A DNA stretch of 32,000 nucleotides from Desulfocapsa sulfexigens DSM 10523 (GCF_000341395.1 NC_020304.1:3900001-3932000); one strand, 5' to 3'; counted from the stretch's first letter, positions 10,668-30,366 are shown. Made by a program: numbers and translations. The notes: generated by a model from the letters alone, not told the origin.

Positions 10668-11162
10668 ATGTTGAGTGACCAGCAATATGGTATGAAGGTT
10701 CAGAAATCATTTGTAAAAACGAATGATACCGCCTCCATCCGCTGCCCTGAATGCGCTCTTGTGAAAAACATTGCCGTAGGTAAGTTTCGCAGTAACAGAC
10801 ACACCCTTAAAACCCGGTGTAGCTGTGGAAACACTTTTCTGGTGGCCCTTGATTTCAGGAAACATTACCGAAAACCTACAAACATAATGGGTATGTACTC
10901 TCTCATAGGCTCTTCTTCCCGTGGTGGCGGCCAGATGCAGGTTAATAACATCTCCCGCAGCGGCCTTGCATTTTCCATCTCGGGACACCACTCCATAAAG
11001 ATTGGTCAGCAAGCGCTCCTTAATTTCAAACTGGACGACAAGAAACAGACCGAACTTACAAAAAAAGTAATCGTTAAAAATATCCGGGACAATAATATCG
11101 GATGTGAATTCCTGAATCAGAGCCAGATTGGTAAAGACCTGGGGTTTTATCTTCAGCCCTAA
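10668..11162 (+). CDS. PilZ-domain protein with N-terminal Cys4 zinc-ribbon-like segment
   Basis: The c-di-GMP-binding motifs RxxxR (RKHYR) and (D/N)xSxxG (NISRSG) occur in the correct order and spacing. The N-terminus reads CPEC...CSCG. A GAGG Shine-Dalgarno sequence lies upstream. Confidence 0.75.
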   Translation: MLSDQQYGMKVQKSFVKTNDTASIRCPECALVKNIAVGKFRSNRHTLKTRCSCGNTFLVALDFRKHYRKPTNIMGMYSLIGSSSRGGGQMQVNNISRSGLAFSISGHHSIKIGQQALLNFKLDDKKQTELTKKVIVKNIRDNNIGCEFLNQSQIGKDLGFYLQP

Positions 11163-14444: not shown

Positions 14445-15797
14445 TCATTCAGAATACTTATGTAACTTATTCTGTAGAGTCTTACGGGTAACTCCAAGCC
14501 TCCTTGCGGCTTCACTTTTATTGCCGTCGGTCTCTTCAAGGGTTCTTAAGATCAAAACCTTTTCCTGTGCCTGAAGAGATGAGTCCTGTCCAACTTCTCT
14601 CTCACTCCTCCTCTCCCGCACCTGTTTCTGAATTGGTACGGGGAGACTTTTTTCAGTAAGGTATTCACCACGCATTAGAATAACCCCGCGCTCAATTGCG
14701 TTTTCAAGCTCCCGCACATTTCCGGGCCAGGAATAGCTGCACAGCAGTTCCATGCACTCCGAGGTGACTCCTGCAACCTCACGCCTGTTCTTTTCTGCAA
14801 ATTTACGGACAAAATGTTCGACCAGCGTGGGGATATCATCTCTTCGTTTGCGAAGCGGTGGAACAGTCACTGTCACCACGTTTAATCTGTAATAAAGGTC
14901 TTCACGGAAATTCCCATTATGAACCTCCTGTTCAAGGTCCCGATTGGTGGCAGCAATAATCCTGGCATCGGTACGAATCGTCTCTTCACCACCAACCCGC
15001 TGCAATTCATGCTCCTGCAACACACGCAACATCTTCACCTGCATGGCCTGGGAAGTTTCGCCAATCTCGTCAAGAAAAAGGGTTCCACCATCCGCCTGGA
15101 CAAACTTCCCTTCACGCTGTTTATCGGCCCCGGTAAATGCTCCTTTTTCATGACCAAAAAGTTCTGACTCAAGCAAACTCTCAGCAAGAGCGGCACAATT
15201 CACCTTTACAAAAGGTTTATCACGCCTCTCACTGTTATTATGCAACTCAGCTGCCACCAGCTCCTTTCCGGTACCAGACTCACCATTGATAAGGACAGTC
15301 GCTTCTGTGGGGGCCACATAGGAGATCATTTCGAGAAGTTCCCGCATTAAGAGAGAACTCCCGAGAATAGAGGAGGAATTTTCCTCAGGAATGCTCTTCT
15401 GCGCCACCTGTTTTCGCTCTTCGACCTGTTTCTTATCCACTGCCCGCTCAAGGGTCAGCCGGAGACGATCAAAATCAAGGGGTTTGGTCATATAATCATA
15501 GGCTCCATGCTTTATGGCTTCGACCGCCGCATCCACAGAAGAATACGCCGTCATGATAATAACGGGCAGAGCCGGATGAGTGGCGTGGATTTTAGCAAAG
15601 GCCTCCATGCCATCCATTCTGGCCATGCGCACATCCATAAGAACTGCGTCATAGGAAAACTTCTGAACGGCATCAACCGCAGTTTTACCATCATCTGCCT
15701 CCACACACTTCCAGCCCCACTCTTTAAACATGGAACAGAGCATGTAGCGATGCACCTGCTCGTCATCGACCACCAGAATGGTTACCTGTTTTGCCAA
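14445..15797 (-). CDS. sigma-54-dependent response regulator (NtrC family: REC + AAA+ + Fis-type HTH)
   Basis: REC domain (ILVVDDE...LMDVRMARMDG...TKP), Walker A GESGTGKE, the GAFTGA motif (HEKGAFTGA) and a C-terminal HTH (SEAARRLGVTRKTLQNKL). No cognate histidine kinase lies adjacent. Confidence 0.9.
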   Translation of the reverse strand: MAKQVTILVVDDEQVHRYMLCSMFKEWGWKCVEADDGKTAVDAVQKFSYDAVLMDVRMARMDGMEAFAKIHATHPALPVIIMTAYSSVDAAVEAIKHGAYDYMTKPLDFDRLRLTLERAVDKKQVEERKQVAQKSIPEENSSSILGSSLLMRELLEMISYVAPTEATVLINGESGTGKELVAAELHNNSERRDKPFVKVNCAALAESLLESELFGHEKGAFTGADKQREGKFVQADGGTLFLDEIGETSQAMQVKMLRVLQEHELQRVGGEETIRTDARIIAATNRDLEQEVHNGNFREDLYYRLNVVTVTVPPLRKRRDDIPTLVEHFVRKFAEKNRREVAGVTSECMELLCSYSWPGNVRELENAIERGVILMRGEYLTEKSLPVPIQKQVRERRSEREVGQDSSLQAQEKVLILRTLEETDGNKSEAARRLGVTRKTLQNKLHKYSE

Positions 15798-16689: not shown

Positions 16690-18402
16690 ATGGCAGGAAA
16701 AAACAGAATAACAAAAATTCCAGCTGATACATTGGTAAATAAAAACAGCAACAGATTTTACCTGATGCTGTCGACGCTTGTCATCAACCTGCTGGCTCTG
16801 GCAATGCCTATTATGATGCTGCAGACCTATGACCGTATCCTTCCAAGTCACGGAATAGGTACCCTGGTGTTACTCATCTCAGGAGTTGCCTGTGCGGTAA
16901 CGCTTGAAGTCGGCCTTCGTCTGGCACGATCATATCTCACCGGCTGGTCCGGGGCAGTTTTTGAACATAAAACTGCTTGCGCCGCCATGTCTCACCTGCT
17001 CAATGCCAATGTTCAGGCATTTGAAAAACAGGGTGCAGGAGCGTACATCCAAAAGATGGCGGCAATCACCAGATTGCGAAGTTTCTACTCCGGCCAGGCA
17101 CTGATGACCATGGTGGACCTTCCCTTTGTTATAACTTTTCTTGTCCTGATTGGCTATATCGGAGGAGATCTGGTTTTTGTACCACTCACTCTGTTTATTC
17201 TTTTCTGCATTATATCCTGGATTGTGGGAATACGCCTCAAACAGGAGGTAAAAGAACAGGACTTCAGCGACAAGATCCGCTACAACTTTCTCATAGAGAC
17301 CCTGACCGGTATTCACTCCATAAAGAGTCAGGGGCTTGAAAAATTCTTTTTCCGCCGTAACGATCGTCTTCAAAATCGTATCTCGGCTGCTCACTTTCAA
17401 GTTGCACTTTCCAATAATATCGCCATGAGCTCGGGAATGCTGTTTGGCCAAATCATGACCGTATCGGTTGTATCTTACGGGGCGATCAAGGTTTTGAACG
17501 GTGACATGGGAACCGGTGGTCTTGCCGCCTGTCTCCTGCTGTCTGGAAGAGTCATGCAACCCGTGCAGAGGGCATTGGGGCTATGGACCAGATTTCAAAG
17601 CTTTTTTATCGACAAAAAAGAACTGGAAGATATTTTTGCCCTCCCAGGATCGTCCTACGGTGACACTGAAACAGTGATGCAGCCCACGGGCCTTGTCAGC
17701 TGTAGAAACCTCAGTTTTTCTTACGGAGAAAAAAGCTCTCTTCTCTTCGACGACATCAACCTCTCGCTGCGAACGGGCCAGTCCATATCTCTTATTGGAG
17801 AGCAGGGTTCGGGCAGAACAACATTTATCAACCTTCTCACCGGCTTGTACAAACCGACAGAGGGGCAAATCACCATCGATGGAGCAAATCCATCACAGGT
17901 TTCTCCTGTACAGCTTGCCTCACATATTGGATATCTCCCGGAAAAAGGAGCTATTTTCCACGGAACGATCATGGAGAATCTTACTTTTTTTGGAACAATA
18001 CCTGAAAAGGACGCCCTGAAAGCTGCCGAGCATCTTGAAGTGAGCGAAGCGGTGGCACTTTTACCGAATGGATATAAAACAGTACTCAGCGATTCCGTAA
18101 CCGACCCCATTCCTCCAGGCCTCAAACAACGAATCTCAATAGCACGCGCTCTCGCCACAAGGCCCCGGATTATTCTGTTCAACAACGCCGACAGAAATCT
18201 TGACCGCTCCGGCTACAACCTGGTCTTCAGGATACTCGGGCGCCTCAAAAAAAACACCGTCCTTATCATCATTTCCGATGATCGCAATATCCTTCGACTG
18301 GCAGACAAGGAATACTACATCGTCAACGGAAAACTAGAGGAGAACGCTCCTGTTGACTCCAAACTCTTCTCGGTTCTGCCATTCAGAGAGTTACGGGCAT
18401 GA
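16690..18402 (+). CDS. T1SS-type ABC permease/ATPase (PrtD-like length, no N-terminal peptidase domain) with a degenerate nucleotide-binding domain
   Basis: A six-TM exporter domain is followed by an NBD. Walker A reads GEQGSGRTT (K to R, 17797-17823), the signature reads PPGLKQR (18112-18132), Walker B reads IILFNNAD (D,E to N,N, 18169-18192), and the H-loop region reads IISDD. An AGGAG Shine-Dalgarno sequence lies 4 nt upstream of the ATG. Confidence 0.85.
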   Translation: MAGKNRITKIPADTLVNKNSNRFYLMLSTLVINLLALAMPIMMLQTYDRILPSHGIGTLVLLISGVACAVTLEVGLRLARSYLTGWSGAVFEHKTACAAMSHLLNANVQAFEKQGAGAYIQKMAAITRLRSFYSGQALMTMVDLPFVITFLVLIGYIGGDLVFVPLTLFILFCIISWIVGIRLKQEVKEQDFSDKIRYNFLIETLTGIHSIKSQGLEKFFFRRNDRLQNRISAAHFQVALSNNIAMSSGMLFGQIMTVSVVSYGAIKVLNGDMGTGGLAACLLLSGRVMQPVQRALGLWTRFQSFFIDKKELEDIFALPGSSYGDTETVMQPTGLVSCRNLSFSYGEKSSLLFDDINLSLRTGQSISLIGEQGSGRTTFINLLTGLYKPTEGQITIDGANPSQVSPVQLASHIGYLPEKGAIFHGTIMENLTFFGTIPEKDALKAAEHLEVSEAVALLPNGYKTVLSDSVTDPIPPGLKQRISIARALATRPRIILFNNADRNLDRSGYNLVFRILGRLKKNTVLIIISDDRNILRLADKEYYIVNGKLEENAPVDSKLFSVLPFRELRA

Positions 18403-20582
18403 GTGATGATTTTCTAAAAAAAAGCAGCTTGCTGCAAAGCAGGATCGAACCCTATGGCTGGCTTTCCAAAACCGGCCTGCCTTCGCCCTTCGCCTCATGT
18501 GTGGCACCGCTCCTCACTGCTCTTTCCTGGAACGGAGAAGTGCATCAGATCTGTGAATCCCTGCCCCACTACCCTGACCAGATCGACCGAGTGGATTTCA
18601 TTAACACCATGGCAAATCTGAATTATCAGATTCAACATGCCAGCGTAAAACAATTAACAGGTTTTGATGCACGCCTTGCCCCCTGCCTCGTTGTTGTCAA
18701 TGAGGGGGGAGACCAAGAGATCCCTTATATTGTCTTTAGCGACTCAAAAAGTACTCTCCACGCCTTCGATGGAAAAAGTCAGGAATGTGTTCCCTTTACT
18801 ACAATCACAAAAAGCAGTGGAACAATTTACACTTTTCAGGCCCTCGATGAGAATGGACTGGATAAAAACAAACTGAACCAGCAGGTCCATGAAAAACCGA
18901 GCCGCTGGGCCCGGTTTCTGGGCAGCCGCTTTACTCCTGTCTTCAAGCAGATATTTGTTTCAAGTTTTGTGATCAATCTGCTGGCCCTTGTATCATCACT
19001 TTTTGTCATGGCCGTATATGACAAAGTAATCGGCAACAATTCCCCTGACACCTTGTATTTCTTAGCAATTGGTGCACTTATGGCCATAGGTTTCGAGTCT
19101 TTGCTTCGCTACCTGCGCGCAAGAAGTCTTGCCTTTTTCGGGGTTCGCCTTGACTCCATTATCACCCAATCCATTTTTGAGCGTCTCCTGTATCTTCCAC
19201 CCCGTATCGTGGAAAGTTCATCCATTCCGGCACAGATTGCCCGCCTGAAAGATTTCGACTCCGTCCGTAATTTCTTCTCAGGCCCCGTGGGGACGAATCT
19301 GGTTGAAATTCCCTTTACCCTGATTTTTATTTTCACCATTTATTTTATCGGAGGACCACTGGTACGCATTCCCATTCTTCTGGCGCTTTTTTATTCTTTA
19401 CTCGGGTTCATCATGCTTCCCCGGATTCAGAACTGCACTGAAGAGGGAGCCGTTGCCAGCGTTCAGCGACAGACGCTCATGGTGGAAACCATGCAGAAAT
19501 TCAGACCTATCCGTATCCATGGCGCCATGGATACCTGGTTTGAGCGCTTCAGGAAACTCTCGGGTATCTCAGCATACACCTCCTTTAAAAGCTCCCAGCA
19601 GACAGCATTTGTGGAAGCAATTGCCTACGGACTTTCGGTCGGAGCGGGTGTAGGTACTCTGGTTTACGGTATCTTTCTGGTCTGGGAACAACAAATCACA
19701 ACAGGTGCACTTATTGCCAGTATGATGCTGGTATGGCGAGTTATTTCTCCCCTGCAATCCATCTGCAACTCTCTGGTGCGTATTCGTTATATTTTCCGCA
19801 GCGTGGGTCAGGTGCACAAACTCTTGCGCTCGGCCCCTGAAAACAGTACTACCCTTTCTGATCAACCATTCACTATCACCGGAAATATTTCATTCAGTGG
19901 CGTGGGCCTGCGCTATACTGCAGATCGAGGAGCAGTCTTCAGCGGAATGACGCTCAACATCAAGGCAGGTGAAGTTGTTGCCGTGGCAGGTCCCAGCGGC
20001 TCCGGGAAATCATCTCTGCTGAAAATCATTATAGGCCTCTATCCACCGCAGATGGGTGCAGTACTGATAGATGGGCTTGATATACGACAACGGGACCCCA
20101 TAGCACTGAGGCGAAATATTGCCTATACCCCGCAAACACCGGAGCTTTTTCACGGCTCAATCGAACAAAACCTGCGCATGTGTAAACCCGACGCAACCCC
20201 TGAAGAACTCAACAACTGTTTATACCTTGCAGGGGCACTCGACGATGTCAATCACTTTGAAGAAGGTATCTCGTACTTTATTGGAGACTACAAATCTGAA
20301 CAACTCTCCACCACCCTCACCTATCAGTTAACACTGGCACGCACCTACCTAAGGGATGCATCTATCTTTTTATTTGATGAAATGCCGCCAACACTTCTAG
20401 GAAAAAAAACCGGCATATTTTTCCGTGAATTCTTGCAGAACAACCGGGGCAGCAAAACCATGCTCTATGTAACGGACCACGAAGAAGACATACTCAAGGC
20501 TGACAAATTAATCTATCTGACCGGAACCGGTCAGGTGCTGATCGGAGATCCTGCCGAACTACTGACAGCTCTCAAAAAATAA
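18399..20582 (+). CDS. T1SS-type ABC permease/ATPase with N-terminal C39-like domain; canonical Walker A/B but degenerate signature motif
   Basis: It overlaps the upstream ABC gene by ATGA. The N-terminal ~160 aa resemble a C39 peptidase-like domain (SCVAPLLTALSWNGEVHQICESLPH...). Walker A GPSGSGKSS (19989-20015), Q-loop YTPQTPELF and Walker B IFLFDE (20364-20381) are canonical. The signature position reads LSTTLTYQLTLAR (20304 onward). Confidence 0.85.
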   Translation: MSDDFLKKSSLLQSRIEPYGWLSKTGLPSPFASCVAPLLTALSWNGEVHQICESLPHYPDQIDRVDFINTMANLNYQIQHASVKQLTGFDARLAPCLVVVNEGGDQEIPYIVFSDSKSTLHAFDGKSQECVPFTTITKSSGTIYTFQALDENGLDKNKLNQQVHEKPSRWARFLGSRFTPVFKQIFVSSFVINLLALVSSLFVMAVYDKVIGNNSPDTLYFLAIGALMAIGFESLLRYLRARSLAFFGVRLDSIITQSIFERLLYLPPRIVESSSIPAQIARLKDFDSVRNFFSGPVGTNLVEIPFTLIFIFTIYFIGGPLVRIPILLALFYSLLGFIMLPRIQNCTEEGAVASVQRQTLMVETMQKFRPIRIHGAMDTWFERFRKLSGISAYTSFKSSQQTAFVEAIAYGLSVGAGVGTLVYGIFLVWEQQITTGALIASMMLVWRVISPLQSICNSLVRIRYIFRSVGQVHKLLRSAPENSTTLSDQPFTITGNISFSGVGLRYTADRGAVFSGMTLNIKAGEVVAVAGPSGSGKSSLLKIIIGLYPPQMGAVLIDGLDIRQRDPIALRRNIAYTPQTPELFHGSIEQNLRMCKPDATPEELNNCLYLAGALDDVNHFEEGISYFIGDYKSEQLSTTLTYQLTLARTYLRDASIFLFDEMPPTLLGKKTGIFFREFLQNNRGSKTMLYVTDHEEDILKADKLIYLTGTGQVLIGDPAELLTALKK

Positions 20583-20599: not shown

Positions 20600-21904
20600 A
20601 TGGCAAAAAAAACGAAACATGATAACAACCAGCAGCTTCGGCTTCTCGGGCTCACAGCAGTACTTGAAGAGGCGACCACTCCGTACCTGATCCGCACCTC
20701 AACCCTTATTGTTTCAGTGGCATTTCTTTCCTTTCTGGTCTGGACAGGTTTTGCTAAAATCAAAGAAGTGGCAAGAACCGTAGGAGAGATCGTACCATCC
20801 GGTCACATTCAGGTCATTCAGCACCTTGAGGGAGGGATCGTTGATGAAATTCTTGTGGAGGAGGATGACCTCGTCAATCCCGGCCAGGTTTTGCTGCGAA
20901 TTCGTGGAGAATCCATAAAAGCCGATCGCGCCCGCCTAGTCACCAGAAAGAACCTTCTCGAACAACGTCATGCCCGTCTCACTGCATTTCTAAACGACAA
21001 GACCCCTTCTGATCCTTCTCACTCGGACAATGCTATCCTCTCTGGAATGTTCCTTGCTCAAAACGACGAGATTCAGGTATTAAAAGAACAGATTGTTCAG
21101 AAAAATGAACAAATAAGTCTCCTCAAACGTGAACAGGCAACCATCCTGAAAAATCTTTCAATTGCCAAAGAATCTTTCGAGACTCAAAAAAAACTTTATG
21201 AGGAACGATTAGTTCCCCAAACGAACTACCTCAATGCTCTGCAGGAAATCAATGCCCGAAAAGGACAGCTCGATGCCATGGTTATCCAGATCAGACAGGC
21301 TGAACAGGCAGTTAAAGAGTTTGAGTGGCGCCTCCAGTCACAGGGTTCCAAAAGCAAGGATAATGTTCTGCAACAATTAGCTGTACTTGAGGATGACCTT
21401 GCAGAAAACAAGGATTTAATTGAAAAACTCAATCAGCAAATCAGTCGTCTGGAACTCAAATCTCCTACCTATGGTCTTGTCAAAGGACTCGAGATCCATA
21501 CCATTGGAGGTATTATTCCACCTGGTCAATCCCTGATGGAAATAGTCCCCCTGGGTGAGGAACTGGTTGCAGAAGTCAAGGTGTCACCGAACGATATTGG
21601 CCATATAAAAACGGGTGACCATGTCACGGTAAAGGTGACTACTTTTGATTTTTCCCGCTACGGATCCATAGATGGTACATTAACCGCCCTATCAGCAACA
21701 ACATTCACAAACCCACAGGGAACACCGTATTATAAAGGTATGATAAAACTTAGTAAACACTATGTTGGAAATGACCCAGAGATGAACAAGGTTCTCCCCG
21801 GTATGATAGTCAATGCAGATATTATCACCGGTGAAAAAAGCCTGCTTGCCTACTTATTAAAGCCTATTCACCGCTCGTTGAATTCGGCATTTATCGAACG
21901 CTGA
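20600..21904 (+). CDS. HlyD-family type I secretion periplasmic adaptor (membrane fusion protein)
   Basis: It has one N-terminal TM helix, a lipoyl-like segment (GHIQVIQHLEGGIVDEILVEEDDLV), a long coiled-coil and a C-terminal beta-barrel ending ...GEKSLLAYLLKPI, which is typical of HlyD/PrtE proteins. Confidence 0.88.
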   Translation: MAKKTKHDNNQQLRLLGLTAVLEEATTPYLIRTSTLIVSVAFLSFLVWTGFAKIKEVARTVGEIVPSGHIQVIQHLEGGIVDEILVEEDDLVNPGQVLLRIRGESIKADRARLVTRKNLLEQRHARLTAFLNDKTPSDPSHSDNAILSGMFLAQNDEIQVLKEQIVQKNEQISLLKREQATILKNLSIAKESFETQKKLYEERLVPQTNYLNALQEINARKGQLDAMVIQIRQAEQAVKEFEWRLQSQGSKSKDNVLQQLAVLEDDLAENKDLIEKLNQQISRLELKSPTYGLVKGLEIHTIGGIIPPGQSLMEIVPLGEELVAEVKVSPNDIGHIKTGDHVTVKVTTFDFSRYGSIDGTLTALSATTFTNPQGTPYYKGMIKLSKHYVGNDPEMNKVLPGMIVNADIITGEKSLLAYLLKPIHRSLNSAFIER

Positions 21905-21959: not shown

Positions 21960-22898
21960 ATGACTATCACACAGGATGCTCCTCTTTCAATACTTGCCGT
22001 AGATGACAATCCAACCACACTACGCCTCCTCGAAACCATGCTGAAGCGTAATAAATTCGATGTTCGCACTGCCGTAAATGGAGTCGAAGCCATGGCTGTT
22101 CTCAGCGAGTCTCATGACACCATTGACATTATTCTTCTTGACAGAATGATGCCTGAGATGGACGGAATCGAAGTCTGTAATGCCATGAAGGCGGATGAAA
22201 ATCTACGCCACATCCCCATTATAATGCAAACCGCAGCGGACCGCCCTGAAGAGATCAGTGAAGGAATTGCAGCCGGAGTCTTTTATTATCTCACCAAGCC
22301 ACTGAATGTTGAAATGCTGCTCTCAATTGTTGAGGCTGCAGGAAAGCAGATCCGCCGCCACAGACAGTTGCGCCACGAAATGGAACGACGCAAAATCAGT
22401 TTTGGTCTTGTTCAGATTCTGAAATGTACCTTCAGGACATTGGATGAAGCCGAAGGACTTTCCATATTTTTGGCAAACTATTTTGATGATCCCGACAGGA
22501 CCCTCACCGGTATTTCAGAGCTTCTGGTAAATGCGGTGGAACACGGAAACCTTGGTATCAGCTATGCGGAGAAAAGTGAACTGGTGGCAGAAAAAAAATG
22601 GCAAAACGAGATCAACAACCGCCTCAACGATCCACGCTATGGAGATCGAAGGGTAACTGTGATATTTGAACGTAAGGAAAAAGCCTGCTATATCCAGATT
22701 ACCGACGAAGGGGATGGCTTTGACTGGAAGCAATACATGGAGGTTGATCCCTCACGTGCCATGCACAATCACGGTCGTGGAATTGCCATGGCCAACATGC
22801 TCTGTTTTAACAAACTGGTATACAATGAGAAAGGAAATCAGGTTACCGGAATAATAGAAAGCGATACAAGAGAGGATAAAGACGATTTTTGGGATTGA
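21960..22898 (+). CDS. response-regulator receiver fused to a GHKL ATPase/kinase domain (RsbW/SpoIIAB-like)
   Basis: The REC domain has all key residues (VDDNP, LLDRMMPEMDG, MQTAA, TKP). The C-terminal half has an N-box ELLVNAVEHGN, a G1 box ITDEGDGFD and a G2 box GRGIAMA. Confidence 0.8.
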   Translation: MTITQDAPLSILAVDDNPTTLRLLETMLKRNKFDVRTAVNGVEAMAVLSESHDTIDIILLDRMMPEMDGIEVCNAMKADENLRHIPIIMQTAADRPEEISEGIAAGVFYYLTKPLNVEMLLSIVEAAGKQIRRHRQLRHEMERRKISFGLVQILKCTFRTLDEAEGLSIFLANYFDDPDRTLTGISELLVNAVEHGNLGISYAEKSELVAEKKWQNEINNRLNDPRYGDRRVTVIFERKEKACYIQITDEGDGFDWKQYMEVDPSRAMHNHGRGIAMANMLCFNKLVYNEKGNQVTGIIESDTREDKDDFWD

Positions 22899-23071
22899 GA
22901 TGAAGCCCATTTCACTTTCGTAATCTGGAGTACAGAACCTTCTAGGTATTTGCCTAGGTGTTTTGCCTAGGATACGGCTAATCACCTAAAAATACATGGA
23001 CATTGCATTCATTCCTTTCACAAGAAACAACGGAACGCTTATTGCATCACCCAACCTGTAACCACAACAAC

Positions 23072-23153
23072 TGATAGCAGTTTGCCAAACTCATCGTAAG
23101 GTGAGGACGGAAAGCCACGGGTCCTTTAGAGGATAGCCGGGTTGCCAGCATCA
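23072..23153 (+). promoter_or_regulatory. candidate GEMM-I (cyclic-di-GMP-I / cyclic-dinucleotide) riboswitch aptamer in the leader of the giant gene
   Basis: Manual comparison with the Vc2 aptamer as I remember it. The elements occur in the same order: a GCCAAA junction, a 6-bp hairpin CTCATC-GTAA-GGTGAG with a GNRA loop, GACGGAAAGCC (one mismatch to the conserved GACGCAAAGCC), a second hairpin CGGGTCC-TTTAGA-GGAT(AG)CCG, and TAGCCGGGTTGCC (Vc2 has UAGCGGGGUUACC). Confidence 0.5.
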
Positions 23154-23174
23154 AGGGGTAACCCGGTTTTTTTT
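23137..23174 (+). terminator. rho-independent terminator overlapping the 3' strand of the candidate aptamer (expression platform)
   Basis: CCGGGTTGCC (23137-23146) pairs with GGTAACCCGG (23157-23166) to form a 10-bp stem containing one G-U pair. The loop is 10 nt, and T8 follows at 23167-23174, about 46 nt upstream of the ATG at 23221. Confidence 0.75.
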
Positions 23175-23220
23175 GTGTTCGCCATACTGTTTATCCAAAA
23201 AATAGAGTATCGGAGTCCTT

Positions 23221-26200
23221 ATGTCTTCAGAGAACAATCCAGTTAGCTCTTCTTCCAGCCCCATTGGCAATTCAACAGAGAATACTCAACAGGACTGGAT
23301 GGATCTTGACCAGCAGGGAGTAGCAGGAGAAACCCTTAAGGCAAAGAAATGGACGACCCAGCGACGCCTTGTCGACGATGCATCCTATCAAGGCAACATT
23401 CATACAGGAACTGAAGCGACTACTGAGCTGAATAAAAGCGACACTCTCTCCGGGGATGCCCTGAACTATCAGTCAATTGCTAATGAAGGTAAAGAGACAC
23501 AGGACAACAACGGCCCAGAGGAATTTTCAGACGAATCCCAACGGGGCTTATCACCCGACATGGATTCCCTGAACAGAACCGACACACCATCGGCCACATC
23601 TGCAGCATACGAACATACGACTGAAGCTGAAAGTCTTGTTACATCCAGCGGAAGTGACACACTGAAATTTGAAGAACATATTGATGAAGCCAAATCACAT
23701 GGACGCACTGCGACTGAAAACAAATCTACAACACGATTGGCCCAGCCTGCAGCAACAGAAACGCCTCCGGAAGATCTCCCCCTGGAGAATAGCAGTCAGG
23801 AAAGGAACACAGCCACCGTATCGGAGTTACAGCAGAAATCAGAGATTAGTGACGCTGTTGATCCCTCCACACAAACACCCACCACAGCTCCTGGATCTGC
23901 CCCTGAACCTGTACCTGACCATGAAATAATCACAGAAAGTAGTGCATCCGCGCCTATTTTGACCACAGCTGATGCTATCGGTGTCGAAGATACAATGATA
24001 GCAATTGATATTTCAAGTCAGCTTACAGACACCGACGGTTCAGAATCCCTTGCTATCACCATAGGCGGTGTTCCTGAAGGAGCATTCCTTTCAGCCGGTA
24101 CAAGCCTTGGTAATGGAGAATGGCAGCTCACTCCGGATCAGCTCGAAAATCTCAGCCTGACACCACCTGCCAATAGCGACGAAGACTTCAGTCTTACGGT
24201 CACCGCAACCAGCACAGAAAGCCATGGCGGTCAGCAAAACTCCAGATCTGAAATCATCGATTTTTTTATAGAAGCTGTTCCCGACACGCCAGAGCTAACA
24301 ACTGTCGCCGCAACCGGCACAGAAGACACGGCAATTACCCTCGACATCAGCACTGCTCTCACCGAGCTTGATGGTTCAGAAATACTCTCAGCAATCACAC
24401 TATCAGGCCTTCCTGAAGGTTCCATTGTATCCGCCGGAACACAAAACATTGATGGTTCCTGGAGTGTTGCACAAGACGACCTTGAAGGACTACAGCTCAC
24501 TCCACCAAAAGATTATTCCGACAATTTTGAAATCAATTTGTCGGTCACGGCAACCGATTCCAATGGTTCCACTTCAACCAGCACTGCAGTCCTTCCAGTC
24601 ACTATCACAGCAGCGCCCGACGAAGCAGTTATCAGTGGTAGTGGAGCTATACTTGCCGAAGATACCCTTCAAACAGCGTCAGGTCAGTTGACTGTTGTTG
24701 ATCCCGACGCAGATGAGGCCCACTTTACCGCTGAAACGATTGAAGGAACATACGGTTTTCTTGACGTTGCGACAGACGGATCGTGGACATACAATCTCAA
24801 CAACGACGCTGACACAGTGCAGCAGCTCGGTACTGGTGATACTGTTACCGATACCCTCACGGTAACTTCTGCTGATGGCAGTACCCATGATCTGGTCATG
24901 ACCATAACCGGTACAAATGACGCCATTAGCGTAGTGTCAGATAGCAACACAGCACCAAACACTATTATGGAGAATGCCGCAGACGGCACAGAAATCCACC
25001 TCTCTGGACTGGCAACCGATGCAGATGGAGACGCCATACTCTATACACTCGTAGATGATCAAGGAAATGAAATCACCAATGGTCCATTTAGTATTAATAG
25101 AGAAAGTGGCGTTGTTACTCTTCAGGATCGTAGCCTGATAGACTACGAAACTGAAAGCAGTCACACCCTGCATATCCAGGCAAGCAGTGCAGACGGCACC
25201 TCGAGCACCAGTGATTTCCAGGTACAGATTGAAGATGTTGACATTATCAAAACAACCGATCTTGGTGGTGATGTAAATGGCACTGCTGTTACCTTTACAG
25301 TAACAGGAGATCATTACGACCCAAAAAACATTCAAGATGTAGGTGCCGGATCCCCCCACTACCGTATCAGGGTCAACGGCGAACCTCTGGAAATTGACGG
25401 CCAGAACACTTTTTCAGTTGAAGCCAACCGTGGCCATATTGAAGATAACCATGTTGTCCGAGACGGAAATGATGTGGAACTGGTGACTTTCAGGGTACCC
25501 CAAGGAACTGATGTCGATTCTGTTTCAATTGAATTCATTAACGATGCCTATGATACCTCCAGTGACAGGGATGGTGACGGAATCACCACCGAAGATCGAA
25601 ACCTTGTAGTAAAAGAGTTGAATATCGGAGGCACTGTCAACGATGACGGAAGTATTGACGGAGGCACGACCTTGCAGGCTGAGGATATCGAAGTGTCCCA
25701 ATACATTGCCAGTAATGGTGCTGACGTCTCTGGACGCGAAGTTATGCCATGGCAGGGAAGCATGACCTTTTATCCGGATGGTGTGCCACAGGAAGCACCC
25801 ATATTGGTCGATGATAACGCAAATATTTCAGAAGACAGTGCTGTAGTTCTTACAGGCAATATTTTATCCAATGATACCGATGCAAACAACGGGAGCAACT
25901 TCAGTGTGACTGGATTATCTGGAGTCACTGTTCTCCAGGATAATTTCGATGATGGCAATGCTGATGGCTGGGTAGAAATCAGTTCCAATGGCGCTGATAC
26001 TGATAGATGGCAGGTAGTTGACGGGGCTATTGGTGAAAAAAGCAACTCAGCAAAGGGAATCATGGCCCATGACATGGGGGATTCTGCCGACAGCACCAAT
26101 TACGAGGTATCAGTTGATATACATGCCAATGCCGGGGATACGTACAATAACAATGTTGGCCTTACCTTTGGTTATGAAGACAATGCCAATTATTACATGA

Positions 26201-29200
26201 TTAAATGGGATGACTACTCCGACAACTATTCAGAAAGCAGCACCCACAAAGATTTTCAGCTGATCAAAGTTGAGGATGGCCACCAAACAATAATTGACCA
26301 GATAGATCACGCCGAATTACCCAGTGATTTCACATTATCAGTCAATGTATCCAACGATAGCGGCATATCAATATCTGTTGACGGTGAAGAAAAACTCAGA
26401 GCTGCAGATGAACATCCAGCCATCAACACAATTGGCCTCAATACTGGCGATAACGATAGCGGTATCAGTTATGACAATGTATCGGTTATTAATAATGATA
26501 TTCCAATAGAAGATACAACATCTATTGACGGTACCTATGGTACATTAACCCTTAACCAGGATGGCAGTTATTCTTACGAACTCAATGATGCCAATAACGA
26601 TGTACAAATGCTTCATGATGGTGAACAGCTCACAGAGACCTTCGCTGTCAATGTCCTTGAAAACCACTCAGGAGAAGCAGGAACTGAAACACTGAACATT
26701 ACCATTAATGGAAGCAATGACGGCCCCGTTGCAATAAACGACAGTACAGTATCAGAACTCGCAACAGTCTTCCAGGATGATTTTAACGATGGCAATACTG
26801 ATGGCTGGACTGAGATTAGTTACAACGACGCTGATACTGGCAATTGGCAAGCTGTTGATGGTGCTATTGGCGAAAGAAGTAATTCCGCAAGAGGAATCAT
26901 GGCCCATAACATGGGTGATGATGCAGAAAGCACCAATTTTGAAGTTTCGGTGGACGTTCATGCCAACTCTGGACAAACTGGAAATAATAATGTTGGAATT
27001 ACATTTGGATATGAAGACAACAGTAATTACTACATGGTCAAGTGGGATGATTACTCCGAAAACTACTCAGAAAGCAGTACCCATAAAGATTTCCAGTTAA
27101 TCAAAGTTGAAAATGGCCACCAAACAATAATTGATCAAATAGATCAGGCAGATCTGCCCAGTGATTTCAACTTGTCAGTAAATGTGTCCGACGATAATGG
27201 TATAGCTATTATGGTTGATGGTAAAGAAATGCTGACAGCAGTAGATGAACATCCTGCTATTAACACGATCGGCCTTAACACTGACGACAATGACGGCGGC
27301 ATCAGCTACGATAATGTCTCGGTTAAAGTAGCATCCGACCAGACAATTGTGACCGACGAAGATAGTTCCATTGTTGTCACTGCTGACAGTCTCCTTGCCA
27401 ACGATACAGATGTTGAGGGAGACACTCTGTCCATTTCCGCTGTATCCGAAAATGTGCTTGATGTTGATGGCAATATTGTTGGCACCGCCTCCCAGGATGA
27501 CAGTGGCAACATCGTATTCACCCCTGGTGATGCCCTTGATGCTCTTGCGGAAGGTGAGAGTACAAATGTCAACTTCACGTACACGGTCAGTGATGGCCAG
27601 GGTGGAACTGATACAGCCACCGCTACGATCACCGTCACAGGAAAAGATAACGACCTCACCTATGTTTCTGAATCAGCTGGCTATAAAAATGTCGTCGGAA
27701 TGTATGAAACCGACGACCAGGGCAATCCTGTCAGTGGTACCGTGATAATCGACGATCAAAATGGCATGGCAGGTGGCACCCATCTTGCCGATCTGGAACC
27801 TGGCAATTATGAATTTTTCATTATAGCCAACGGTGCAAATGAGGTGGATACTGAGAGCAGTATCAGCTTTGATACCAGCGGAGATAAACCAATACTTTTG
27901 ATTGATGGAGAACCCGCTGCCCACCCCGTCTATTTCACCGAACCAGGTTTTAACCCTGACGGCAAGGATCATTTTCATTTCGAATCAGACGGTGAAGGTG
28001 GCACCTTCATCAAGATAGAAGACTTACCCGACCTTGGGGATGCTGATTTTGAAGATGTGGTGCTTCACACCAACTTCGAGATGGATGACAGAACAGCCAG
28101 TGGCGAGCTTTCTGACGGTGATCAGGCAGCAAACAGTGTGGTGGAAAATACTGCTCCAGAGGCCATCGCTGACATAGCTGACATCAAAGCCTTTGAACTA
28201 CCCGAAGGCGGCAGTATTGTCTCAACGGAAAGCAATACCATCGTGGTCAAAGGTGAAATTGTCACTGAAGGTGACACGGGGTCGAGTGTTGACCAGTGGA
28301 CATTTCACCATGGCGGAGGACCATTGACCATCGATACCCTTTCGGAGAGTGGCACAAACTTCACTGACATTGACGGTGACGGTGCTAAGAACCACATCGA
28401 CACCATGATGCGTCTCTATGACGAGGACGGGAACCAGGTCGCCATGAATGACGACAGCAGCATGCAGACCGGTGACGGTTCAACCAATGATTACTTCTCT
28501 CATATTCAGGACTCCTATATCCAGGTCGATGATCTGCCTCCCGGTAATTACTCTCTTGCCATCGGGTCCTGGGAGCTTACCCAGGATGAAGTAGCAAATG
28601 GCCATAACGACAACTCTGATCAGAATATACGCTATGACCATGCCCAGGATACCGGCCCCTATCAAATAACCCTCACAGGAGACGTATCCTTCTCAGAGGA
28701 AAGTCCTCTTGCCACTGATGAAGACACAGGACTCACCATCAACGCTGACACCCTTCTTGCTAATGATAGCGATGTTGATGGGGACAGCCTCAGTATCGTG
28801 GCAGTGGGTACACCGGTGGATGCAGACGGCAAGGTGGTGGGAACCACCGAACTTGTAACAGAAAACGGCGAACAGCAGATTCGCTTTGTACCGGGTGCTC
28901 AGCTCGATTCCCTTGAAACTGGAGAATCAAGCAGTGTCAGCTTCAGTTACACCATCGATGACGGCCAGGGGGGGACCGATACAGCCACTGCTACGATCAC
29001 CGTTGCAGGAACAGATAACGACCTCACCTATGTTTCTGAATCAGCTGGCTATAAAAATGTCGTCGGAATGTATGAAACCGACGACCAAGGCAATCCTGTC
29101 AGTGGTACCGTGATAATCGACGATCAAAATGGCATGGCAGGTGGCACCCATCTTGCCGATCTGGAACCTGGAAATCATGAGTTTTTCATCATAGCCAACG

Positions 29201-30366
29201 GTGCAAATGAGGTGGATGCTGAAAGCAGCATCAGCTTTGATACCAGCGGAAACAAACCAATACTTTTGATTGATGGAGAACCCGCCACACACCCCGTCTA
29301 TTTTACCGAACCTGGTTTTAACCCCGACGGCAAGGATCATTTTCATTTCGAATCAGATGGTGAAGGTGGTACCTTCATCAAAATAGAAGACTTACCCGAC
29401 CTTGGGGATGCTGATTTTGAAGATGTGGTGCTTCACACCAACTTCGCGATGGATGACAGGACAATAGTAGAAGAATCCATACTTGACGAACAGTTAAATA
29501 ATTCCATAGCAACAGGGATTGCCACAGCCGGATTTGATACTTCCATAACCGATACTGAAGCAAACGGCATCCATAGCGAAGCGATGGAAGATCTCTCTCT
29601 CAATATGCCATTCCTTACTCTGCCAGGTGACGCTGAAGGGAGCGAACAGGCGGCCGAACCCCAGGAAACAGCAATTGTAACGCAGGACACAGTTCTTCAG
29701 GCTGACACCCCTGTTTCAGAATCATTCACGGAAGACAGCCAACAGAGTTTGAATCCACCCACAGATGATGACCTGGCGCTTTCACTCCCCTCCATATCTC
29801 TCAATGATCTCTTTGACGAACCGGCTGACAACAATTACGATCCTGCAGTAACTACTGAAAACGAAACAAGCGCTGTTAGTAATACCGATGAGAATACGAA
29901 TCCTGCAAATGAAGCAGCAACAGACACAACTGATGAGACATCGACTACCGAAGCTGTGGGTCAGGAACCTCAGGAAGAACTTGTAGATGATGCCACTGAT
30001 TTACATAGTATTGCTGGCAGTGAGGTTGAAGAAACTGAATTAAATACCGATAACTTACATATAGATCTTGCGAGTGATACTGAATCCGAGTCGTCAACAA
30101 ATTCAGAGGACGAAAGCAGCAGTCTTGATCGATTTGCAGCAACATCAGCCAATGCATCGGAAGATAACGATAACTCTCCTCTTGACAACTTCTCTGCCTG
30201 CAGTCAGTCCGAAGAAACATCAGAATTCTCATCGGTTGAAGAAATTGACACCATAGACGACAATGCCACAGACCAGGTAGACGATGCCGGGTTAAATGAT
30301 GTTAATGCTATCCAGGAAGACCTTTCCCAAGAAGCGGAACAGGTTGACGCGAATGGTGCATGTTGA
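23221..30366 (+). CDS. 2381-aa mosaic adhesin-like putative T1SS substrate (tandem DTDGSE-type repeats, VCBS, cadherin-like, CBM-like, 2x LamG/lectin-like, 2x cadherin-like+DUF4114, PPC-like; acidic disordered termini)
   Basis: A single uninterrupted ORF preceded by a GGAG Shine-Dalgarno sequence 5 nt upstream. The recognised segments are: VCBS-like (GTYGFLDVATDGSWTYNLNND...TGTNDA at 24640-24925, and GTYGTLTLNQDGSYSYELND at 26488-26745); cadherin-like (24958-25245); FINDAYD...DRNLVVKELNIGG, which resembles a Ca-dependent CBM (25246-25760); DEDxxxxxxADxLLANDTDVxGDxLS plus FTYTVSDGQGGTD, which resemble tandem-95/cadherin-like repeats; GYKNVVGMYE...FIKIEDLPDLGDADFEDVVLH, which resembles DUF4114; and a PPC-like beta-sandwich (28280-28683). 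Confidence 0.9.
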   Translation: MSSENNPVSSSSSPIGNSTENTQQDWMDLDQQGVAGETLKAKKWTTQRRLVDDASYQGNIHTGTEATTELNKSDTLSGDALNYQSIANEGKETQDNNGPEEFSDESQRGLSPDMDSLNRTDTPSATSAAYEHTTEAESLVTSSGSDTLKFEEHIDEAKSHGRTATENKSTTRLAQPAATETPPEDLPLENSSQERNTATVSELQQKSEISDAVDPSTQTPTTAPGSAPEPVPDHEIITESSASAPILTTADAIGVEDTMIAIDISSQLTDTDGSESLAITIGGVPEGAFLSAGTSLGNGEWQLTPDQLENLSLTPPANSDEDFSLTVTATSTESHGGQQNSRSEIIDFFIEAVPDTPELTTVAATGTEDTAITLDISTALTELDGSEILSAITLSGLPEGSIVSAGTQNIDGSWSVAQDDLEGLQLTPPKDYSDNFEINLSVTATDSNGSTSTSTAVLPVTITAAPDEAVISGSGAILAEDTLQTASGQLTVVDPDADEAHFTAETIEGTYGFLDVATDGSWTYNLNNDADTVQQLGTGDTVTDTLTVTSADGSTHDLVMTITGTNDAISVVSDSNTAPNTIMENAADGTEIHLSGLATDADGDAILYTLVDDQGNEITNGPFSINRESGVVTLQDRSLIDYETESSHTLHIQASSADGTSSTSDFQVQIEDVDIIKTTDLGGDVNGTAVTFTVTGDHYDPKNIQDVGAGSPHYRIRVNGEPLEIDGQNTFSVEANRGHIEDNHVVRDGNDVELVTFRVPQGTDVDSVSIEFINDAYDTSSDRDGDGITTEDRNLVVKELNIGGTVNDDGSIDGGTTLQAEDIEVSQYIASNGADVSGREVMPWQGSMTFYPDGVPQEAPILVDDNANISEDSAVVLTGNILSNDTDANNGSNFSVTGLSGVTVLQDNFDDGNADGWVEISSNGADTDRWQVVDGAIGEKSNSAKGIMAHDMGDSADSTNYEVSVDIHANAGDTYNNNVGLTFGYEDNANYYMIKWDDYSDNYSESSTHKDFQLIKVEDGHQTIIDQIDHAELPSDFTLSVNVSNDSGISISVDGEEKLRAADEHPAINTIGLNTGDNDSGISYDNVSVINNDIPIEDTTSIDGTYGTLTLNQDGSYSYELNDANNDVQMLHDGEQLTETFAVNVLENHSGEAGTETLNITINGSNDGPVAINDSTVSELATVFQDDFNDGNTDGWTEISYNDADTGNWQAVDGAIGERSNSARGIMAHNMGDDAESTNFEVSVDVHANSGQTGNNNVGITFGYEDNSNYYMVKWDDYSENYSESSTHKDFQLIKVENGHQTIIDQIDQADLPSDFNLSVNVSDDNGIAIMVDGKEMLTAVDEHPAINTIGLNTDDNDGGISYDNVSVKVASDQTIVTDEDSSIVVTADSLLANDTDVEGDTLSISAVSENVLDVDGNIVGTASQDDSGNIVFTPGDALDALAEGESTNVNFTYTVSDGQGGTDTATATITVTGKDNDLTYVSESAGYKNVVGMYETDDQGNPVSGTVIIDDQNGMAGGTHLADLEPGNYEFFIIANGANEVDTESSISFDTSGDKPILLIDGEPAAHPVYFTEPGFNPDGKDHFHFESDGEGGTFIKIEDLPDLGDADFEDVVLHTNFEMDDRTASGELSDGDQAANSVVENTAPEAIADIADIKAFELPEGGSIVSTESNTIVVKGEIVTEGDTGSSVDQWTFHHGGGPLTIDTLSESGTNFTDIDGDGAKNHIDTMMRLYDEDGNQVAMNDDSSMQTGDGSTNDYFSHIQDSYIQVDDLPPGNYSLAIGSWELTQDEVANGHNDNSDQNIRYDHAQDTGPYQITLTGDVSFSEESPLATDEDTGLTINADTLLANDSDVDGDSLSIVAVGTPVDADGKVVGTTELVTENGEQQIRFVPGAQLDSLETGESSSVSFSYTIDDGQGGTDTATATITVAGTDNDLTYVSESAGYKNVVGMYETDDQGNPVSGTVIIDDQNGMAGGTHLADLEPGNHEFFIIANGANEVDAESSISFDTSGNKPILLIDGEPATHPVYFTEPGFNPDGKDHFHFESDGEGGTFIKIEDLPDLGDADFEDVVLHTNFAMDDRTIVEESILDEQLNNSIATGIATAGFDTSITDTEANGIHSEAMEDLSLNMPFLTLPGDAEGSEQAAEPQETAIVTQDTVLQADTPVSESFTEDSQQSLNPPTDDDLALSLPSISLNDLFDEPADNNYDPAVTTENETSAVSNTDENTNPANEAATDTTDETSTTEAVGQEPQEELVDDATDLHSIAGSEVEETELNTDNLHIDLASDTESESSTNSEDESSSLDRFAATSANASEDNDNSPLDNFSACSQSEETSEFSSVEEIDTIDDNATDQVDDAGLNDVNAIQEDLSQEAEQVDANGAC
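23953..24624 (+). repeat. two tandem 112-aa (336-nt) coding repeats of the DTDGSE/LDGSE type
   Basis: Copy 1 reads P-ILTTADAIGVEDTMIAIDISSQLTDTDGSESLAITIGGVPEGAFLSAGT...LTPPANSDEDFSLTVTATS. Copy 2 reads P-ELTTVAATGTEDTAITLDISTALTELDGSEILSAITLSGLPEGSIVSAGT...LTPPKDYSDNFEINLSVTATD. The offset is exactly 336 nt. Confidence 0.85.
25933..27324 (+). repeat. duplicated ~185-aa LamG/concanavalin-like lectin-fold domain (copies 25933-26487 and 26770-27324, period 837 nt) separated by a VCBS-like unit
   Basis: LQDNFDDGNADGWVEISSNGADTDRWQVVDGAIGEKSNSAKGIMAHDMG...ISYDNVSV aligns with FQDDFNDGNTDGWTEISYNDADTGNWQAVDGAIGERSNSARGIMAHNMG...ISYDNVSV. Protein identity is high by eye, and I estimate roughly 80% at the nucleotide level. 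Confidence 0.85.
27613..28094 (+). repeat. copy 1 of a 482-nt near-identical direct repeat (end of cadherin-like unit plus DUF4114-like domain)
   Basis: It aligns base-for-base with 28981-29462 at an offset of exactly 1368 nt. I counted about 20-25 substitutions and no indels, which is roughly 95% identity. Confidence 0.9.
28981..29462 (+). repeat. copy 2 of the 482-nt near-identical direct repeat
   Basis: See copy 1. The twin antisense shadow ORFs at 27673-27978 and 29041-29346 in the track reflect the same duplication. Confidence 0.9.

Follow-up and report, generated by a model that had tools for sequence, protein, structure and literature searches.

The leader analysed here lies in a type I secretion locus within a 32,000-nucleotide stretch of DNA (the window), and the sequence at 23072-23174 was identical to that read in an initial annotation of the window. 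Two ABC permease/ATPase genes (16690-20582) and an HlyD adaptor gene (20600-21904; 338.5 bits compared to a cut-off of 208.65) are followed by a gene encoding a fusion of a response-regulator receiver and an RsbW-like HATPase_c_2 domain (anti-sigma/serine kinase; 21960-22898, plus strand, REC-HATPase), by the leader, by a large repeat adhesin gene (23221-30366, plus strand) and by a TolC-like gene running from 30558 to the window end. The adhesin gene encodes 2381 residues, and a ribosome-binding site, GGAG, was read from the sequence 5 nt before its ATG (23212-23215, plus strand). Its product contains the Pfam domains Cadherin_5, Big_9, Cadherin_4, DUF4114, TSP_C and Cadherin as well as an NCBIfam VCBS domain (139.9 bits), and there was a partial, below-threshold match to BapA/Bap/LapF. 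It is a probable type I secretion substrate, and the type I secretion genes on both sides were counted as evidence for this assignment. Identical 16-mers occur inside the gene at 27774-27789 and 29142-29157, 1368 nt apart, and the protein carries two near-identical long blocks (DUF4114-containing, TYVSESAGYKNVVGMYETDDQGNP...), indicating large recent internal duplications. The LapD/LapG protease circuit is the usual control of such adhesins, and the window ORFs that were scanned included neither a LapD nor a LapG gene. Besides the riboswitch, a small PilZ-domain protein encoded in the window (10668-11162, plus strand) may also be a c-di-GMP receptor.

Orthologous loci were found by tblastn of the window proteins against fetched loci. 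An uncultured Desulfocapsa metagenome-assembled genome (MAG) has proteins 77-94% identical to those of the window, and at its orthologous locus (L118) the HlyD, REC-HATPase and adhesin proteins were 83%, 85% and 77% identical, respectively. In a Desulfobulbus MAG (L071) the HlyD and REC-HATPase proteins were 55% and 58% identical, respectively. The order HlyD, REC-HATPase, aptamer plus terminator, adhesin was kept in both loci. The REC-HATPase gene stands directly upstream of the riboswitch in all three.

Upstream of the aptamer, the sequence CGGAACGCTTATTGCA at 23031-23046 (plus strand; CGGAACG-CTTA-TTGCA, with GG at 23032-23033 and GC at 23044-23045) has 2 mismatches to the sigma-54 consensus TGGCACGNNNNTTGCA, and on this match it is a candidate sigma-54 promoter. 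Seven such matches occur in the window compared to 2.8 expected by chance. The two orthologous leaders retain the GG-N10-GC arrangement with TTGCA at the same place, 39-47 nt before the nucleotide equivalent to G20 of the Vc2 aptamer, and a promoter scan of 22600-23500 found no sigma-70-like site. Transcription probably starts near 23057, about 18-20 nt before the aptamer, and may do so from this candidate promoter. If the promoter is real, the adhesin would be doubly gated.

A direct repeat, TTTGCCTAGG, is present at 22949-22958 and again at 22962-22971, and CTAGGT occurs a third time at 22942. The repeats follow the REC-HATPase stop codon, precede the sigma-54 site and are kept in the Desulfocapsa MAG; they may bind an activator or may form the terminator of the upstream operon, and a segment overlapping them (22941-22958) was flagged as terminator-like by a scan. 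Elsewhere in the window, an NtrC/ZraR-type sigma-54 activator gene (14445-15797, minus strand; REC, AAA+ and HTH domains, plus a VpsR-domain match below threshold) encodes a candidate activator of the adhesin promoter.

The aptamer and its covariation

When the whole window was searched with cmscan (Rfam 15) at the curated gathering thresholds, the only match was found at 23075-23150 on the plus strand, to RF03167 "c-di-GMP-I-GGC", with 60.3 bits (gathering threshold 59), an E-value of 4.9e-12 and model positions 1-80 of 80. A second, lower-scoring model of clan CL00126 was also above its own threshold on the same aptamer. The orthologous aptamer of the Desulfocapsa MAG, which is near-identical to that of the window, scored 58.2 bits on RF01051 (threshold 35) compared to 58.1 bits on RF03167. 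The element is a member of the c-di-GMP-I (GEMM-I) clan. The initial annotation had proposed a GEMM-I aptamer at this site, to be checked with a covariance model, and the above-threshold clan match together with the hairpin covariation described below bears this out.

The anatomy of the aptamer was read off the cmscan alignment, and all pairs were verified base by base, including those of the 6-bp hairpin with a GNRA loop and of the second hairpin that had been drawn by eye. G23084 (model position 10), and not C23085, corresponds to Vc2 G20, the residue responsible for recognising the first base of the ligand; the initial annotation had left this choice undecided. G23084 is followed by the CC of the junction helix (23085-23086), in which C23085 pairs with G23110, the inverted form of Vc2 pair 21-46, and C23086 pairs with G23109. 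In the first hairpin (23090-23105; Rfam P1a, Vc2 P2), CUCAUC and GGUGAG form 6 bp, one of them a U.G pair, closed by a GUAA tetraloop (23096-23099). The junction CGGAAA (23108-23113) leads into the second hairpin (23113-23143; Rfam P1b, Vc2 P3), which has 12 bp with bulges at A23117 and A23135/G23136. All of these features are on the plus strand. In Vc2 numbering, C23108, G23109 and G23110 correspond to C44, G45 and position 46, respectively, A23111 to the intercalating base A47, A23112 to A48, G23136 to G83, and C23145 (plus strand; model position 75) to C92, the Watson-Crick partner of the second ligand base. The pocket residues at positions 20, 47 and 92 are therefore G23084, A23111 and C23145, and both residues of the C44-G83 inter-helix pair are present (C23108 and G23136). 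The Hoogsteen recognition of one guanine by G20, the Watson-Crick pairing of C92 with the other and the role of A47 have been described (PMC5888326, PMC6140456), as have the C44-G83 pair and a list of highly conserved positions (PMC3764141, PMC4744006).

Covariation was assessed by aligning 84 aptamers that share the inverted 21-46 pair and counting pairs for the Rfam structure. Standard pairs were found in 90.3% of cells compared to 78.3% in shuffles, and the covariation score was 0.391 compared to 0.155 in shuffled alignments, none of 500 shuffles equalling it; slid controls gave scores of 0.126 or less. The first hairpin was 98.6% paired with two-sided changes at five of its six pairs, and the second was 94.9% paired with covariation at three pairs or more. 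These findings show that both hairpins are supported by covariation across 84 relatives. The position of G23136 was invariant (84/84) and that of C23145 was C in 83/84, whereas C23108, GAC and AAA were constant in 84/84 because the search pattern fixed them, and the C-G pair at 23085-23110, also found in 84/84, was likewise built into the pattern.

J1/2 (23079-23083) reads AGUUU and is U-rich; the family consensus is A-rich, with AAA present in 52 of the 84 relatives and all three adenines absent in 8. A small 5' hairpin (23069-23082) can take up J1/2 in the minimum-energy fold. The initial annotation had also proposed a closing P1 helix between 23072-23078 (plus strand) and 23148-23153. The complementarity exists and its pairs were verified, with A23076 bulged, but the duplex (-5.2 kcal/mol compared to a shuffle mean of -2.75) was equalled by 6.5% of shuffled flanks and is no better than chance. 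The helix was absent from both orthologous leaders, and as a conserved feature it was rejected. At the P1 positions in the family register, the cmscan alignment places C.C and G.A mismatches in the window. P1 was just 48.8% paired across the 84 aptamers, which suggests that a weak P1 is normal in this subclass.

The shared-strand terminator and the predicted switch

An intrinsic terminator (23135-23174, plus strand) overlaps the 3' strand of the aptamer. Its core, CCGGGUUGCC (23137-23146) paired with GGUAACCCGG (23157-23166), is the 10-bp terminator with T8 reported in the initial annotation, and was found to extend to a stem of 12 bp formed by AGCCGGGUUGCC (23135-23146) and GGUAACCCGGUU (23157-23168), with 7 G-C pairs, a loop of 10 nt (23147-23156) and a T8 tract (U8 in RNA) at 23167-23174. 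The consensus terminator scan accepts loops of up to 8 nt, which is the sole reason why it passed over this hairpin; it flagged the weak one at 22941-22958 instead. AGCCGGGUUGCC doubles as the 3' strand of the second aptamer hairpin and as the 5' arm of the terminator, making the two structures mutually exclusive.

The minimum-energy fold of the full leader was -37.9 kcal/mol and included the terminator, compared to -33.2 kcal/mol when the aptamer was forced, so that the full leader favours the terminator fold by 4.7 kcal/mol. In transcripts ending at or before 23156, the aptamer fold was the minimum. The aptamer is thus preferred until the 3' arm of the terminator has been transcribed, and the terminator afterwards, as in a kinetic ON switch. 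The leaders of both orthologous loci folded in the same way. Their aptamer cores were nearly invariant, the flanks were diverged, and changes in the 3' arm of the terminator were one-sided and preserved pairing (G-U to G-C and the reverse). A strict scan of 118 related leaders found a shared-strand terminator in no fewer than 29, and more cases were visible by eye when a single mismatch was allowed. The ON switch through terminator competition that had been predicted from the sequence is supported by the fold energies and by this recurrence in orthologues and in at least 29 other leaders. Control of the adhesin gene, which had also been proposed, is supported by an ORF that starts 47 nt past the U tract and by the conserved synteny in L118 and L071.

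A class-I c-di-GMP (GEMM-I) riboswitch acting as a transcriptional ON switch is the best explanation of these findings, and one that we hold with good confidence. The nascent RNA would fold first into the two-hairpin aptamer, and c-di-GMP would be bound with G23084 contacting one guanine, C23145 the other and A23111 stacked between them. In the bound state the second hairpin would stay closed and hold AGCCGGGUUGCC; with that strand held, the terminator could not form and RNA polymerase would read into the adhesin gene. In the absence of ligand, AGCCGGGUUGCC would re-pair with GGUAACCCGGUU, and the 12-bp hairpin followed by U8 would end transcription before the gene. We infer that the predicted outcome in vivo is production of the type I secretion adhesin at high c-di-GMP. 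Points that count against this explanation are the U-rich J1/2 and its possible capture in the small 5' hairpin, the mismatches at the top of P1 in the family register, the poor conservation of the alternative P1 and the weak response of natural elements such as Bc1.

An unlikely alternative, and the one that survives best, is that the aptamer is intact and the regulation weak or absent, the terminator acting as a constitutive attenuator and the promoter exerting the main control. The weak or absent P1, the atypical J1/2, the candidate sigma-54 promoter and the possible upstream activator site agree with it, and there is a precedent, since certain c-di-GMP-I elements found in nature show hardly any response in vivo despite an intact pocket; Bc1, for one, scarcely affects the genes downstream of it (PMC11218506). 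However, the core and the shared-strand terminator were near-invariant in three orthologues amid diverged flanks, which argues for selection on the switch, and the subclass-wide frequency of P1 pairing given above would make a weak P1 unremarkable.

Other arrangements were seen among the related leaders. In four of them (L007, L021, L038 and L069), a downstream ...CCGGAUUACCGUGGC... repeats the GCCACGG strand of the aptamer and can be paired with a GGUAAUCCGG-U tract further on, which suggests a second recurrent expression platform, either a three-state or a differently wired switch. Four tandem aptamers occupy approximately 350 nt in a Desulfosudis oleivorans MAG (L113, 7165-7514, minus strand), two tandem aptamers each occur in Desulfoluna limicola and in a Desulfobacteraceae MAG (loci L121 and L080), and six GEMM-I matches lie within 14 kb on a metagenome contig (L126).

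The inverted junction pair, the ligand and the variant label

The initial annotation had noted a C-to-G change in the junction, GACGGAAAGCC, and suggested that it was compensated by a change in the 3' element. The change is compensatory, but the cmscan alignment gives a different partner: G23110 in GACGGAAAGCC pairs with C23085 in GCCAAA, itself a G-to-C change relative to GGCAAA, so that the G21-C46 pair of Vc2 is inverted to C23085-G23110, which cmscan flags as a compensatory pair. The listed highly conserved positions (PMC3764141) include neither 21 nor 46. When 185,579 species genomes were scanned with the pattern CCAAAC-N4-7-GNRA-N4-7-GGACGGRAAGCC, leaving position 20 free and allowing A or G at position 47, at least 120 loci were found compared to approximately 17 expected by chance according to our own estimate, and the inverted pair is common to at least 118 aptamers in public genomes. 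Among the 132 matches listed, position 47 was A in all 132, and position 20 was G in 127, A in 4 and T in 1, the last of which looks like a chance match. The hosts of the matches listed were mostly Thermodesulfobacteriota, with some Campylobacterota and Gammaproteobacteria. With at least 118 aptamers carrying the inversion and A47 throughout, the inverted pair is a common natural variant of the ordinary aptamer. No experimental data on an aptamer of this kind were found, and a full-text search for GACGGAAAGCC gave unrelated primers only.

A joint reading would make the compact GEMM-I aptamers with the inverted pair a distinct subclass which, together with sigma-54, forms an AND gate replacing LapD/LapG in Desulfobulbales. 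Beyond the inverted pair, a U-rich J1/2 and an absent P1 in the window aptamer are part of this reading. It is improbable as a whole and ranks behind an aptamer that regulates weakly. If the subclass were distinct, affinity, kinetics or cyclic-dinucleotide preference could differ from those of Vc2-type aptamers, and the inputs of the gate, over a giant type I secretion adhesin, would be an enhancer-binding protein and a second messenger.

The combination of G20, A47 and C92 leads us to predict c-di-GMP as the ligand of the window aptamer. Riboswitches for cGAMP carry A20, and wild-type Vc2 with G20 binds cGAMP at 10 uM compared to picomolar c-di-GMP, which is about a million-fold weaker (PMC6140456). 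The initial annotation had left the ligand open between cyclic dinucleotides; the choice is narrowed by a pocket that has the signature of c-di-GMP and not the A20 signature of cGAMP. As position 23084 is G and not A, assignment to the cGAMP type (GEMM-Ib) was rejected. Candidate switches of that type outside Geobacter were found among the relatives, where four aptamers (L078, L082, L095 and L116) combine the inverted pair with A20, one of them from a Desulfocapsaceae MAG.

The window aptamer could still be a variant of altered specificity, sensing 3'3'-cGAMP or another cyclic dinucleotide through its inverted 21-46 pair and U-rich J1/2, a reading that we consider less probable again than the AND gate. 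The inverted pair does adjoin the intercalating A47, J1/2 is unusual, the Rfam model with the best score, RF03167, describes a variant, and related bacteria have this scaffold with A20, as just described. Against this, position 20 is G, and Vc2 with G20 discriminates against cGAMP (PMC6140456); the residues at 47 and 92 are the canonical ones; the list of highly conserved positions does not include 21 or 46 (PMC3764141); and the inversion is widespread, with A47 retained in every match listed. A c-di-GMP ligand remains the preferred prediction.

Membership of the true c-di-GMP-I-GGC variant is very improbable, even though RF03167 was the top model with a score above its threshold. The RF03167 consensus reads ...GGCAAAC...GGGACGCGAAgCc..., in which model position 37, flanked by the junction pair and AA, is G; in the window this position (Vc2 47) is occupied by A23111. 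From the consensus and from real G47 sequences, we infer that position 47 is the base that defines the variant, and on this ground GGC membership was rejected. Real G47 sequences (GGCAAAC...GGACGCGAAGCC) exist and are rare, with 18 stretches, approximately 10 aptamers, in the metagenome collection. True GGC sequences share the compact scaffold of the window aptamer, for which RF03167 gave the highest bit score, but they keep the junction pair as G-C, whereas it is inverted in the window, and they have the apparently defining G47 in place of A23111. On RF03167, true G47 aptamers scored 59-76 bits and A47 aptamers with the inverted pair 59-75 bits, indicating that the label reflects the shared compact scaffold and not the pocket. 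The GGC label was given to 22 of 23 A47 aptamers tested, at or above the gathering score of RF03167, and the clan models are said to recognise the same RNAs (PMC9943018). Canonical A47 aptamers labelled RF03167 include L011, L016, L019, L030, L032, L037, L054, L058 and L065, and further ones are L074, L075, L092, L093, L100, L105, L107 and L108. RF03167 thus routinely out-scores the parent model on aptamers with a canonical pocket, automated annotation will over-call the variant, and variant labels should be confirmed at the nucleotide that defines the variant. A chance resemblance without any structured RNA has a negligible probability and was excluded by the E-value of 4.9e-12 across the full model, the retention of the element in orthologues and the covariation of its hairpins.

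Comparison with known c-di-GMP systems

The window element is a c-di-GMP-I riboswitch of the compact, GYRA-loop type with a canonical pocket. It shares with Vc2 (RF01051, clan CL00126) the two-hairpin aptamer, the GNRA first loop, the CAAAC and GACG-AAAGCC junctions, the G20, A47 and C92 pocket and the C44-G83 inter-helix pair. It differs from Vc2 in that its 21-46 pair is C-G and not G-C, its second hairpin is compact and lacks the 11-nt tetraloop receptor, its loop, GUAA, is of the GYRA type, its J1/2 is U-rich and it has no conserved P1. The GEMM-Ib (3'3'-cGAMP) riboswitches of Geobacter, such as Gs1761, have the same fold, but theirs is A20 where the window has G23084. Related former Deltaproteobacteria harbour GEMM-Ib switches, and many switches of this type work by terminator read-through.

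In LapD/LapG systems, c-di-GMP governs giant type I secretion adhesins (PMC3032545, PMC6890996), including LapA of P. fluorescens and FrhA and CraA of V. cholerae, and the target in the window would be of the same kind. There, control is post-translational, through a protease and an inner-membrane receptor, whereas in the window it is proposed to act at transcription elongation.

A position in the 5' leader of a gene for a surface or secreted protein is shared with the c-di-GMP-I class, and ON switches of this class have been described before adhesin genes, namely Bc2 before cap, the collagen adhesion protein gene of Bacillus thuringiensis (PMC11218506), and Vc1 before gbpA of V. cholerae (PMC4744006), with the adhesin going up at high c-di-GMP. 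The window differs in phylum, being probably from Thermodesulfobacteriota (Desulfocapsaceae, judging by the protein identities to the Desulfocapsa MAG), and in its target, a type I secretion repeat adhesin of 2381 residues inside its own secretion locus. The switch type is already documented by Bc2/cap and Vc1/gbpA, and the window adds one example to a large, well-understood class. It is a known kind of switch in a new place, the leader of the gene for a 2381-residue secreted adhesin, and it marks where a type I secretion adhesin locus of a sulfate-reducer relative would be controlled, attachment being predicted to be switched on by c-di-GMP during transcription elongation.
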